DNA from: an uncultured Spirochaetota bacterium
GTDB taxonomy: Bacteria; Spirochaetota; Spirochaetia; SZUA-6; Fen-1364
Assembly: GCA_963734545.1 (NCBI GenBank)
Contig: CAVTHO010000004.1
Span: forward strand, 96,001 to 160,000
DNA length: 64,000 nt
Direction of reading: 5' to 3'
Shown here one piece after another: positions 26,032 through 28,856 of this stretch. The position numbers were made by a program, and so were the translations under genes. Numbering within the stretch: the first letter of the stretch is position 1; the number at the start of each line of letters is the position of its first letter. The notes beneath the pieces were generated by a model. That model was not told the origin of the DNA. It saw only the letters and a list, made by a program, of their open reading frames with translations, and ran no database searches.

Positions 26032-26934
26032 ATGAAGGATGAGGGCAGGGTTTCCTATTCCAGCCGCAGGTATGGCACTGGCGCCTTCATGCGCCGCAAG
26101 CAGTGGTGGTACTTCGAGGGTCTCGACGAGGCGAGGAAGCTCTATTTCGTGTTCCTCGCCCTCGAGGCTGTGCCGATGAGCTACGTGTCCCTCAAGGTCA
26201 TCGACTACAAATCCGGGAACCGCTGGACCGAGGACCATTTCGGCCGATTCGACGCTTCTCCCGGTGATCGGGTGGATGTACACGCGAAGGGGAAGTGGGG
26301 CTCTCTCCGTTTTTCGGGAAGGGCAGAGGACGGCTGGCGCGTCGAGGTGAAGACCGGGCGCCTGCAGGCGGAGATCACGCAGCGCCCCGAGGCCGAGCTC
26401 CACGTGAACAACCTCCTCACGCAGCACATCGACTACTCGATACGCCAGTTCATCAAGAACGACTGCCAGGGGGAGCTTGCCCTGGACGGCGAAGCCGGCC
26501 GGTTCTCGGGCCACGGCTACCATGAGCACAACTGGGGCGTGCAGGCGAGGCACTCCACCGCGCACTGGCTCCACTTCTGGTCCCCCGCCGCGGCAGGAGT
26601 CATCCTCTCCTGCCATTACGACGAAGGCCTGCCCCACCACTACAGTTTTCTCTGGACCGGAGGCGAGGAAAAGACACTCCATTCGCCTGCGGAATTCCTG
26701 TTCGATGCCGCGGAACCGGACAAGCCGTGGAAGGTCGTTTCCCCCGACCTCCTGATCGAGGCGCGGCCTGTCACCGGGCACAAGACGCGTATCCGCGTCC
26801 CTCCCCTCCTGCCCTACCTCGACGTGGACTACTACGAGCAGCTCCTCGAGGTGCGAGGCCGCGCGATTGTCGAGGGCAGGGAGGTCCCGATCACCGGCAT
26901 GGGAAAGCTCGATTTCAATTGGAATCGATGGTAG
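26032..26934 (+). CDS. Tocopherol cyclase / CrtC / AttH-like double beta-barrel protein
   Basis: QWWYFEG and GHGYHEHNWG motifs. SD AAGGAG. Confidence 0.6.
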   Translation: MKDEGRVSYSSRRYGTGAFMRRKQWWYFEGLDEARKLYFVFLALEAVPMSYVSLKVIDYKSGNRWTEDHFGRFDASPGDRVDVHAKGKWGSLRFSGRAEDGWRVEVKTGRLQAEITQRPEAELHVNNLLTQHIDYSIRQFIKNDCQGELALDGEAGRFSGHGYHEHNWGVQARHSTAHWLHFWSPAAAGVILSCHYDEGLPHHYSFLWTGGEEKTLHSPAEFLFDAAEPDKPWKVVSPDLLIEARPVTGHKTRIRVPPLLPYLDVDYYEQLLEVRGRAIVEGREVPITGMGKLDFNWNRW

Positions 26935-27041
26935 AAAGCGAGACAGGGCAGGAGGCGCGATGAGCAAAGCAGGCAGAACGAGGGGCGGCCCCGCGCCGGC
27001 CCTGCTGCCCGCCGGGCGTCTCTCCTTCCGCCGGATTTTTC

Positions 27042-27109
27042 TTGACCGTCCATGATTATTGTGATAATTTAGCATTATCGGATTAATCTGAATTATCAGA
27101 AAATACTGA
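27042..27109 (+). promoter_or_regulatory. Sigma70 promoter followed by a 9-bp tandem operator-like array
   Basis: TTGACC-N17-TAATTT, then ATTATCGGA TTAATCTGA ATTATCAGA AAATACTGA (27074-27109). Confidence 0.65.
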
Positions 27110-27143
27110 ATCGGAAAAAGACGGACGGCCGGGAGGGGATCAG

Positions 27144-27416
27144 GTGGCACGGAAACAGGTAGCAAAGACCGCGGGATGCTGCAGCGTCGAGGCCGTGGTC
27201 ACGGTGGACGCGCGGGGGCAGATCGTGCTCCCCAAGGACCTTCGTGATCACGCGGGAATCGCCGCGGGAGACAAGCTCGCGGTCGTGAGCATGATGAGTG
27301 GAGGCAGAGTGTGCTGTCTTTCCCTCATGAAGGTGCAGGAGCTGGCCGGCACGGTGAGAGAGATTCTCGGCCCCGTGGCGCGTGAGCTCGCAGGAGAGGA
27401 GAAATCCAGTGGATAA
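27144..27416 (+). CDS. AbrB/MazE/SpoVT-fold DNA-binding protein with two Cys-Cys pairs (HgcC-like)
   Basis: GCCSVEAVVTVDARGQIVLPKDLR...I..GDKL...VCCLSL. SD GGAGGGG, GTG start. Overlaps the arsM start. Confidence 0.8.
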   Translation: MARKQVAKTAGCCSVEAVVTVDARGQIVLPKDLRDHAGIAAGDKLAVVSMMSGGRVCCLSLMKVQELAGTVREILGPVARELAGEEKSSG

Positions 27417-28233
27417 CGATGTCAGATCGGAAGTCAGCAAGAGATACGCTGAGACGGCAAAGCTGCCGGTGAGCGCGGGCTGCGGATGCGGGTGCGGGTG
27501 CGGCCCGCAGGGCACGGTCAGCGCTGCAAGCGAGCAGCTCGGCTATGACCGGGAGGATCTCTCGTCCATCCCGAGGGAAGCAGACATGGGGCTGGGATGC
27601 GGCAATCCCACCGCCATTGCGGACCTGCGCCCGGGCGAGACGGTCCTGGATCTCGGTTCAGGAGGGGGGATCGACTGCTTCCTCGCCGCGGGGAAGGTCG
27701 GTCCTGCCGGAAAAGTGATCGGTGTCGACATGACCCGGGAAATGATCGACAGGGCCCGGAAGGCCGCGGGCAAGAGCCCGCACAAGAATGTGGAGTTCAG
27801 GCTCGGCGAGATCGAGAGCCTCCCGGTCCGGGACGGTGAAGCGGATGTGGTCATTTCGAACTGCGTGATCAACCTTTCCCCGGACAAGGGCAAGGTTTTT
27901 CGGGAAGCCTTCCGCGCGCTGAAGCCGGGGGGACGTCTCATGGTGTCCGACATTGTCTTGAGCGGCGAGCTGCCGGAGAAGGCCCGCTCGAGCATGGCTC
28001 TCTGGGCGAGCTGCGTGTCCGGAGCGATCCTTGAAAGGGACTACCTCGGGCTCATGAAAGAGGCCGGGTTCGAGGATATCAGCATAGCAAGCCGCAAGGG
28101 CGCCGCTGACCTGATCGACCCCGAGCAGGCGGAAGCGCTGCGCGGCCAGGTGCCTGACCTGTCAGCGGAGGAGGCAGTCCGGCTCGCCGGCATGATTCAG
28201 AGCGTCAGCGTGAAAGCCCTGAAGAGGCGGTAG
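27409..28233 (+). CDS. arsM: Arsenite S-adenosylmethionine methyltransferase
   Basis: CGCGCGCG N-terminus, MGLGCGNP, VLDLGSGGGIDCF, VISNCVINLSPDK, WASCVSGA. Confidence 0.92.
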   Translation: MDNDVRSEVSKRYAETAKLPVSAGCGCGCGCGPQGTVSAASEQLGYDREDLSSIPREADMGLGCGNPTAIADLRPGETVLDLGSGGGIDCFLAAGKVGPAGKVIGVDMTREMIDRARKAAGKSPHKNVEFRLGEIESLPVRDGEADVVISNCVINLSPDKGKVFREAFRALKPGGRLMVSDIVLSGELPEKARSSMALWASCVSGAILERDYLGLMKEAGFEDISIASRKGAADLIDPEQAEALRGQVPDLSAEEAVRLAGMIQSVSVKALKRR

Positions 28234-28319
28234 CCCAGGGGCCGGGCCCGGCCAGCCAGCCTGGCCGCCCGGCCCTCGTATTGTCAGGGCTCTGCCCGGC
28301 CCCTGCCTCGCCCGCCTTG

Positions 28320-28706
28320 TTACGACTCCTGCAATACCGACAGGAAATTCCCCGCGGGATCCTTGAACCAGGCTATGTCGGGGCCCTGCCTGCTGGAGAG
28401 TCCGCGCGCAACGCCCTTCTTGTCGGTCTTCAGGCCATTGTCGTAGTGCTCGAATCGCACGCCACGGTTTGCGAGCTCATCCACCGCCTTGTCGATGTTG
28501 TCGACGACGAAGTTCAGGATGGTGAACGTTGCCGGCTGGTGATTGTCTTTTGAGTAGACAAACACCGCGGCGCCGCCGGGCAGGTGAAGCCTCAGCCCCA
28601 TGGCTTGTTCCTCCACCTTCAGTCCCAGGGTCCCGGTGTAGAAGTCCCTGGCTCTTGCCAGATCATCAACCGAAAAGCCGCTGAAAGCGGCATTTGCTTT
28701 GAACAT
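28320..28706 (-). CDS. VOC/glyoxalase family protein
   Basis: [13 protein letters not shown]...[25 protein letters not shown]. Confidence 0.92.
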
Positions 28707-28856
28707 GGCTTCCTCCTCAAAGAGTCCCAAGATAAGATACTTAGGGAAACCGGCTGCGGGGGGCATGAACCCGACAATTCACACCGGAGCGCGGGCAGGC
28801 CGGCCGGGCCAGCGGCTGCGCTGGCCGATCTGCGGGCACTTTCGTACCTTTGGAGA

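Follow-up and report, generated by a model that had tools for sequence, protein, structure and literature searches.

We analyzed a 64,000-nucleotide window of the genome of an uncultured Spirochaetota bacterium (C4:96001–160000; assembly of 5.14 Mb in 10 contigs, 89% complete), in which a gene for a 90-aa protein of the HgcC family, with an AbrB/SpoVT-type domain and two vicinal cysteine pairs, stands directly before arsM, the gene for arsenite S-adenosylmethionine methyltransferase. Upstream of this gene lies a row of four short boxes, spaced exactly 9 bp apart, which recurs before members of the same family in bacteria and archaea. On the basis of these features, the 90-aa protein is very likely the dedicated regulator of this arsM operon, and we lean slightly towards a more specific proposal, namely that it is an autoregulated repressor of the regulator–arsM operon that is released when thiophilic metals or metalloids bind its cysteines. 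Computation established that the protein belongs to the family, that the two genes stand in this order and overlap, that the box array is conserved and is unique in the genome, and that the cysteines are conserved.

The region upstream of the regulator gene is AT-rich within a GC-rich genome. In 81 upstream regions of family genes, the commonest words were ATCAGA, TCAGAA and AATCAG, together with CTTGAC. Strict cores (TC[ATG]GA) were repeated at a period of exactly 9 bp in 47 of the 81 regions and at none of the other periods (6–8 and 10–13) in any of them; a pair of cores with the 9-bp period was observed in 9 of 3188 control windows drawn from elsewhere in these loci and in 5 of 1620 shuffled sequences. 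We constructed a position weight matrix (PWM) of 9 columns (consensus WTWWTCWGA) from the 47 strict regions and summed its scores over three boxes. The summed score exceeded the 99.5th percentile of 3176 control windows in 79 of the 81 regions (all except L076 and L068), a count that is partly circular, as the training regions are among the 81, and that is independent only for the other 34, most of which still passed. The maximum of the control windows was exceeded in 63 of the 81 regions. Arrays contained three boxes in 66 loci, four in 14 and five in 1. The same array precedes both arsM-linked and hgcA-linked members of the family, in bacteria as well as in archaea, and the boxes travel with the regulator gene, whatever its target or domain of life.

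The position of the array relative to promoter elements is also conserved. Of 67 bacterial family loci, 63 have TTGAC at 4–39 nt upstream of the start of the array, which accordingly falls on the spacer, the –10 element or the start site. In the archaeal loci that we inspected by eye, the boxes abut an A/T-rich, TATA-like stretch. The core TCWGA reads the same on both strands, which makes every box a small palindrome and would suit a two-fold symmetric dimer of the AbrB type. For the window, we read the –10 region from the sequence and fixed its position by aligning relatives, among them L004 and L006. L004, the closest relative, has an open reading frame (ORF) of 11 codons, with Cys as its last residue, after the box array and before the regulator gene (L004:5940–5975); this insert is absent from the window.

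We further searched for the array elsewhere in the genome. The pattern TCNGA-N4-TCNGA-N4-TCNGA had one match in the window against an expectation of 0.01, and the window array scored 31.6 bits with the PWM. Among 10.3 million positions genome-wide, three-box scores above 14 bits were obtained for five overlapping matches, all at the arsM site, and two-box scores above 16 bits were likewise confined to the regulator–arsM site. These results suggest a one-operon regulon in this genome. Single genes over the respective cut-offs were found for both arsM and the NF040962 family.

The original prediction held that arsM is apparently controlled here by a cysteine-containing AbrB-fold protein instead of ArsR, and noted that neither arsR nor hgcAB occurs in the window. 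The window indeed gave no match to HgcA or to the ArsR-type HTH_5 domain, but both systems are present in the rest of the genome: a canonical hgcA–hgcB pair is located on another contig (C6:160.2–161.6 kb; HgcA 399 bits against a cut-off of 275, HgcB 112 bits against 99), and an arsR–acr3 pair is located on a third (C8:145.4–146.9 kb; C8:145503–146935, corresponding to L091:1441–2873; ArsR of 106 aa, acr3 439 bits). Control 'instead of ArsR' is thus valid for the locus only, because the arsR–acr3 pair could act in trans. The HgcA product on C6 has the stretch GVNVWCAAGK, which we take to be the cap-helix motif. The hgcA–hgcB genes are preceded by a MarR-family gene, not by a gene of the HgcC or ArsR type (C6:160170–162080; L098:5172–7081, minus strand). 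Hence the genomic association with hgcAB that the family name implies does not hold in this genome; the gene downstream of the family member is arsM, and hgcAB lie on another contig. As the HgcC-family gene is paired with arsM although hgcAB are present, the genome offers a within-organism comparison of the two methylation systems.

Several further genes were noted around these loci. A gene for a thioredoxin-type ArsC-like phosphatase is convergent with, and just downstream of, hgcAB on C6. One gene past the MarR gene that precedes hgcA lies a gene for a 436-aa radical SAM/SPASM protein (L098:7176–8483, minus strand), the first approximately 45 residues of which gave sub-threshold matches to PF04014 (23.7 bits, cut-off 24.7) and NF040962 (19 bits). 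A second HgcA-like gene is located at C3:477451–478410 (270.9 bits, just below the cut-off of 275). The ArsR encoded on C8 has a single Cys at the usual CVC position (EHCVNEL) and two more Cys near its C-terminus.

The presence of an arsR–acr3 pair raises the possibility that arsM is run by the ArsR of the genome, or by read-through from upstream, and that the 90-aa protein is a general AbrB-like DNA binder that merely lies beside arsM. Read-through would be compatible with the absence of any terminator-like site between the end of the upstream gene (26934) and the operon, as judged from a scan of positions 26850–28450. However, an array that is unique in the genome is the opposite of what a general DNA binder would require, and family genes paired with arsM or hgcA are found in more than 10 phyla. 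Moreover, the PWM finds nothing at the promoter of arsR–acr3: the best two-box score upstream of this pair was –0.4 (compared with 6.3 upstream of MarR–hgcAB), and the arsR–acr3 and arsM promoters therefore do not share the box element. We accordingly regard this explanation as distinctly improbable.

The assignment of the 90-aa protein to the AbrB superfamily is based on several profiles. The protein scored 107.3 bits against NF040962 ('HgcAB-associated protein HgcC'; cut-off 70; profile positions 1–68 of 70), 37.2 bits against TIGR01439 (AbrB looped-hinge-helix domain; cut-off 28.3) and 30.4 bits against PF04014 (MazE_antitoxin; cut-off 24.7), which bears out, at the level of sequence profiles, the AbrB/MazE assignment in the original prediction. 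A Pfam scan returned PF04014 alone, with no match to the winged-helix families HTH_5 and HTH_20, and no ArsD match was obtained in Pfam or NCBIfam at E-values up to 0.01. The sequence match to the AbrB domain covers the N-terminal ∼50 residues; Cys12-Cys13 immediately precede strand 1 of the domain, and Cys57-Cys58 are in the strand that follows the domain. A monomer model built with AlphaFold2 on the family alignment had a mean predicted local distance difference test (pLDDT) value of 75.2 (∼90 for residues 21–50) and consisted of short strands, a helix at 31–37, strands at 45–52 and 55–63 and a C-terminal helix at 64–83. Comparison of this model with the PDB using Foldseek gave SpoVT, AbrB-N, Abh, 5itm, Sso7c4 and MazE as top matches (∼50 columns, root-mean-square deviation 2–3.3 Å), all of which were weak (best E-value 0.026, none at 0.001 or better, for a monomer query with a pLDDT of 75). 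A profile search of PDB sequences returned only DNA-binding domains of the SpoVT/AbrB family (E-values from 2.5e-4 to 0.65). In 79 aligned members of the family, the invariant residues were D22, R24, G25, Q26, L29, P30, K31, R34, A37, G42, D43, K44 and C58, and C13 and C57 were conserved in at least 90%.

To estimate how often the family is associated with either methylation system, we typed the genes downstream of its members in two samples. The first, a scan of a genome collection seeded with the 90-aa protein, comprised the best 80 of 299 relatives; the homologues at 58–92% identity were mostly from Spirochaetota metagenome-assembled genomes. The first downstream ORF on the same strand encoded ArsM in 61 loci, HgcA in 12 and another or no matching product in 7 (NCBIfam, E-value 1e-20). 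A check by tblastn moved three of these seven to arsM, namely L005 (where the wrong ORF had been picked), L056 (cut by the contig end) and L051 (where a gene for an MddA-like methyltransferase comes first and arsM second), and the final tally was 64 of 80 for arsM, 12 of 80 for hgcA and 4 of 80 for others. The four others were a UbiE-like methyltransferase (L060), a weakly ArsM-like methyltransferase (L063), a GltD-like oxidoreductase (L076) and one locus with no match (L053). Because the query of the first sample biases it towards arsM, a second scan, of metagenome contigs, was seeded with an alignment of 12 hgcA-linked members, and the best 80 of at least 568 matches were typed. Here, hgcA was the downstream gene in 46 of 80 loci, arsM in 24 and something else in 2, while 8 were too short; arsM-linked members dominated below approximately two-thirds identity to the seed.

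These counts are also relevant to the possibility that the 90-aa protein is an orphan antitoxin of the MazE/PrlF type, as its PF04014 match and source names such as 'antitoxin PrlF' among the homologues would have it. No toxin gene is adjacent, the neighbors being arsM downstream and an ORF without a Pfam family upstream. Furthermore, the score exceeds the curated cut-off of NF040962, and arsM or hgcA lies downstream in 76 of the 80 genome loci and in 70 of the 72 assessable loci among the 80 from metagenomes. An antitoxin role is therefore extremely improbable.

We also examined 401 Spirochaetota genomes, drawn evenly and irrespective of the neighboring gene, and found the family in 20, including this genome. 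In the other 19 carriers, arsM was directly downstream in 13, hgcA was directly downstream in 2, neither was adjacent in 3, and in 1 arsM was directly upstream and a gene for a MenG/UbiE-type methyltransferase downstream; these counts are not independent, as 8 of the 13 genomes with arsM downstream share one genus. An hgcA match at an E-value of 1e-20 was absent from 12 of the 14 Spirochaetota genomes with adjacent arsM (completeness 83–100%), and of the remaining two, one had a weak partial match and the other had hgcA elsewhere, like the genome analyzed here. Together with the predominance of arsM in the genome loci and with hgcAB of this genome lying behind a MarR gene without boxes, this result supports the claim of the original prediction that the family has a role independent of mercury methylation.

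A family tree obtained by a quick search (81 members, 93 columns) left 43 of 78 inner branches unresolved. The hgcA-linked members formed four groups among the arsM-linked ones (five in Methanoregulaceae, three in Syntrophales, three in Nitrospirota and one singleton). Well-supported branches of this tree force only one change of target, whereas a joint FastTree of 145 rows needs six. In L186 (G186:C1:1428600–1432600) and L185 (G139:C1:62300–66300), which belong to one Spirochaetota genus, an ORF of 128–134 aa follows the family gene in place of arsM or hgcA; it had no NCBIfam match at E-values up to 1e-5, and in G186 a convergent acr3 comes after it. The gene order in L187:273–2356 is arsM, regulator and MenG/UbiE-type methyltransferase gene. 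The UbiE-like enzyme mentioned above is encoded at L060:6242–6991. Relatives of the MddA-like methanethiol S-methyltransferase are encoded next to family members at L051:6302–7069 and L188:2196–3002 (127–137 bits, below the cut-off of 270).

How the 90-aa protein might act on its operon can be outlined as follows. The protein would dimerize or form a higher oligomer and occupy the four TCWGA boxes at their 9-bp spacing; this would block RNA polymerase, because the boxes begin just after the –10 region and cover the probable transcription start. A thiophilic metal or metalloid would bind at the pairs C12-C13 and C57-C58, presumably As(III) or methylarsenite in arsM-linked members and Hg(II) in hgcA-linked members, and this would loosen the contact with DNA, such that arsM and the regulator gene are switched on together. 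We infer DNA binding from the conserved box array; that the protein represses rather than activates, which ligand it binds and what its cysteines do are likewise inferences. The ligand was chosen because the targets nearly always methylate soft metals or metalloids, and because vicinal cysteines bind and sense As(III) in ArsD. A locally acting, autoregulated repressor appears to be the most economical reading of the locus.

The conservation of the cysteines differs between the two pairs. The second pair is CC in 85 of 88 arsM-linked and 56 of 58 hgcA-linked members. At the position of C12-C13, by comparison, CC was found in 80 of 88 arsM-linked and 10 of 58 hgcA-linked members, a contrast that is a raw count on related sequences; a test of 'N-terminal CC goes with arsM' on independent pairs had no power, with only two supported pairs. 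Most hgcA-linked members have a single Cys at this position, often with a CxC farther upstream.

Several observations weigh against the proposed repressor. The first CC pair is not kept in most hgcA-linked members, and three arsM-linked members lack the second, so that there is no universal cysteine set. Joint binding of one atom by C57-C58 would not be obvious in the predicted structure, since both residues are within the strand 55–63, where neighboring side chains face opposite ways, and the stretch containing C12-C13 was modeled with moderate confidence (residues 11–20, mean pLDDT 73). The cysteines could equally serve redox sensing or bind a structural metal. On the DNA side, a generic scanner called no sigma-70 promoter at positions 26850–28450 and neither option for the –10 region passes its rules; the sigma-70-like promoter is a candidate assigned only by alignment with relatives. 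The partial circularity of the PWM count belongs here as well. Finally, the arsR–acr3 pair of the genome is a canonical one that could also respond to arsenic.

The main rival to the proposed repressor follows from the ambiguity of the cysteines. The 90-aa protein would still be the DNA-binding regulator of the operon, and all of the evidence for DNA binding fits equally, but its cysteines would sense the redox or thiol state, or hold an Fe–S cluster or structural Zn, rather than bind As or Hg, such that expression of the methylation genes is limited to suitable (anoxic, reduced) conditions. With its four conserved Cys, a chain could ligate a cluster, a cysteine-controlled regulator of the AbrB type is on record (cyanobacterial AbrB2), and the family carriers belong, by their record titles, mostly to lineages of anaerobes (Dehalococcoidia, Methanoregulaceae, Syntrophales, Nitrospirota and Spirochaetota). 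However, the targets act almost exclusively on thiophilic metals and metalloids, which is a better fit to sensing of a substrate or product. Vicinal Cys pairs are, furthermore, unusual for Fe–S ligation. They are typical of As(III) sites (excerpts of PMC4562236). On balance, we consider redox or structural cysteines unlikely, albeit a serious alternative.

It is also conceivable that the protein, with or without a regulatory function, is mainly a metallochaperone or buffer that supplies ArsM with As(III) or HgcA with Hg(II). Such a role would agree with a small, cysteine-rich protein that is translationally coupled to the enzyme, and ArsD unites vicinal Cys pairs with the functions of a chaperone and a weak repressor (excerpts of PMC4562236). 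A search for longer or fused forms of the protein gave two matches, P0121 (with an N-terminal extension) and P0122 (268 aa). In P0122, the C-terminal half of an HgcC-family protein continues directly into ArsM, which might be taken as a sign of such a partnership. Because P0122 is a single metagenomic sequence, present on one contig, and its N-terminal half is garbled, it is probably an artefact (a frameshift, read-through or a miscalled gene) rather than a true fusion of regulator and ArsM. A complex prediction for ArsM and the 90-aa protein scored 0.02, where the mark is 0.32, and is evidence neither for binding nor against it. A chaperone would not need a conserved box array at its own promoter, and the invariant residues D22, R24, G25, Q26, L29, P30, K31 and R34 are those of the DNA-binding loop and helix of AbrB. 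We therefore regard a chaperone as improbable.

The features of the locus are listed in Table 1. The ORF list places the start of arsM at GTG 27382; this codon is GCG in L004 (regulator 91% and ArsM 89% identical to those of the window), in which GTG 27409 and the preceding GGAGAGGAG are kept. We thus placed the start at 27409, which likely gives an overlap of 8 nt with the stop of the regulator gene (GTGGATAA) and agrees with the overlapping stop and start of a two-gene operon in the original prediction. Consistent with such coupling, the projected gap between the regulator gene and arsM was 50 nt or less in 54 of 63 arsM-linked loci. The arsM product scored 331.2 bits against the arsenite methyltransferase profile NF008823 (cut-off 263). 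In 48 aligned sequences, with the numbering of the 283-aa form, its cysteines C73 (GLGCGNP), C161 (SNCVINL) and C211 were invariant, and C36 and C40 were conserved in at least 90%; we assume the three invariant residues to be the equivalents of the catalytic Cys in characterized ArsM.

Table 1. Features of the regulator–arsM locus, in positions of the window
Feature	Position	Strand	Remarks
–35-like hexamer TTGACC	27042..27047	+	Read from sequence; 32 nt upstream of array
–10 region	27063..27070	+	GATAAT (27063–68, 15-nt spacer, TGT before) or TAATTT (27065–70, 17-nt spacer)
Putative operator ATTATCGGATTAATCTGAATTATCAGAAAATACTGA	27074..27109	.	Four boxes, exact 9-bp spacing, consensus WTWWTCWGA, core TCWGA
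Putative ribosome-binding site of regulator gene, GGGAGGGGA	27131..27139	+	4 nt before GTG 27144; read from sequence
HgcC-family AbrB/SpoVT-type protein	27144..27416	+	GTG start, TAA stop; 90 aa; Cys12-Cys13 and Cys57-Cys58
Putative ribosome-binding site of arsM, GGAGAGGAG	27393..27401	+	Within regulator gene, 7 nt before GTG 27409; read from sequence
arsM, arsenite S-adenosylmethionine methyltransferase	27409..28233	+	274 aa from GTG 27409; 283 aa if GTG 27382

Upstream of the locus lies a plus-strand ORF of ∼300 aa (26035–26934) that had no Pfam family at an E-value of 0.001, and downstream lies a convergent gene of the VOC/glyoxalase family (28320–28766, minus strand). ArsI, the C–As lyase, requires a Cys pair; the translation of 28320–28766 is without any cysteine, and an ArsI-like function was accordingly ruled out. 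Since both flanking genes are unrelated, the regulator gene and arsM are read as a two-gene operon behind a leader region of 209 nt. A 210-nt contig from a sediment metatranscriptome library (X7) covers positions 27275–27484, across the junction of the two genes, with three differences. It is only a hint of expression, as a contig cannot prove a single transcript and the library may hold DNA. The sampled-word share was 0.27 for run X1 and below 0.2 for all other runs; none reached half, and no habitat was inferred.

MraZ and AbrB are known to bind rows of short repeats near promoters. The HgcC family resembles the swapped-hairpin superfamily to which these proteins belong (AbrB/SpoVT/MazE/MraZ) in the sequence and, by weak structural matches, the predicted fold of its domain and in a presumed site made of short repeats near the promoter, but it differs in the addition of conserved Cys-Cys pairs and of a C-terminal helix (64–83), and in boxes that are exactly 9 bp apart. 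We know of no characterized member of the AbrB superfamily that senses a metal or metalloid. As reportedly described by Sakr in 2013, the cyanobacterial AbrB2 (cyAbrB2), the AbrB domain of which is C-terminal, is controlled by glutathionylation; it shares with the proposed repressor the control of an AbrB-type regulator through a cysteine, whereas its signal is redox rather than metal and its targets are different. The proposed logic, a small autoregulated repressor that is encoded first in its operon and released by As(III) at clustered cysteines, would be that of the ArsR/SmtB family; the fold, however, is unrelated (no HTH_5), the operator architecture is different, and the ArsR gene of this genome sits with acr3, not with arsM. 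In Pseudodesulfovibrio mercurii ND132, an ArsR-like regulator is reported to control hgcAB and to respond to arsenic (as cited in excerpts of PMC10349881). ArsD of Escherichia coli R773 is a metallochaperone for As(III) and a weak repressor, and uses the vicinal pairs Cys12-Cys13, 112-113 and 119-120 for binding and sensing As(III) (excerpts of PMC4562236). The 90-aa protein is similar to ArsD in its small size and vicinal Cys pairs, but the two have no sequence-family relation, and the partner of ArsD is ArsA, not ArsM.

The idea is not wholly new, since the family is already catalogued (NF040962) and a regulatory role on the hgcA side was previously proposed. In the portion of the paper used here, Zhang et al. 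(2023, PMC10349881) noted that an abrB/prlF/mazE-like gene lies immediately before hgcA, and proposed it as a putative regulator of hgcAB, mainly in archaea. That gene belongs to the same family as the protein of the window, and the same box array precedes its hgcA-linked and arsM-linked members; the member in the window, in contrast, heads arsM with hgcAB elsewhere, and arsM was the commoner partner when this protein was the seed. The same portion of the paper mentions arsM only among the ars genes near hgcAB and describes neither an operator nor cysteines. In the literature that we covered, which did not extend to subscription journals and supplements, the link to hgcA in that paper was the only one found for the family, with no arsM link and no description of an operator or cysteines; nor did the literature covered, again outside subscription journals, report a metal or metalloid sensor of the AbrB fold. 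To this background, we add the contrast within one genome (hgcAB behind MarR, arsR with acr3, and the HgcC-family gene with the only box array at arsM), a Spirochaetota sample in which most family carriers are without hgcA, and reciprocal seeding to compare arsM and hgcA as partners. We see in the protein a DNA-binding fold and a family that are already on record, combined with a probable new sensing function and a range of targets that exceeds what its name suggests, and the curated name 'HgcAB-associated' is misleading for many members.

The control of arsenic and mercury methylation in anaerobes is poorly understood. For hgcAB, control by an ArsR-like regulator was not demonstrated until 2023, and then in a single bacterium (as cited in excerpts of PMC10349881), and anaerobes that carry arsM often do not methylate arsenic in culture (excerpts of PMC9213503). 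The HgcC family provides a defined candidate regulator and operator before both sets of genes, in lineages that are dominant in wetlands, sediments and rice paddies, and the box array is a sequence signature that could be used to predict when arsM and hgcAB are expressed. A broader view, which we put forward tentatively and as somewhat short of probable, is that the family is the first AbrB-fold sensor of metals and metalloids, an ancient switch of Bacteria and Archaea that acts on 9-bp-spaced boxes and controls arsM or hgcAB. Other methyltransferases may also be under its control, and the N-terminal cysteine pattern, with its contrast between arsM-linked and hgcA-linked members, would be tuned to the ligand. 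If such a switch exists, the methylation of arsenic and mercury in anoxic habitats would be inducible through a common and predictable promoter logic.

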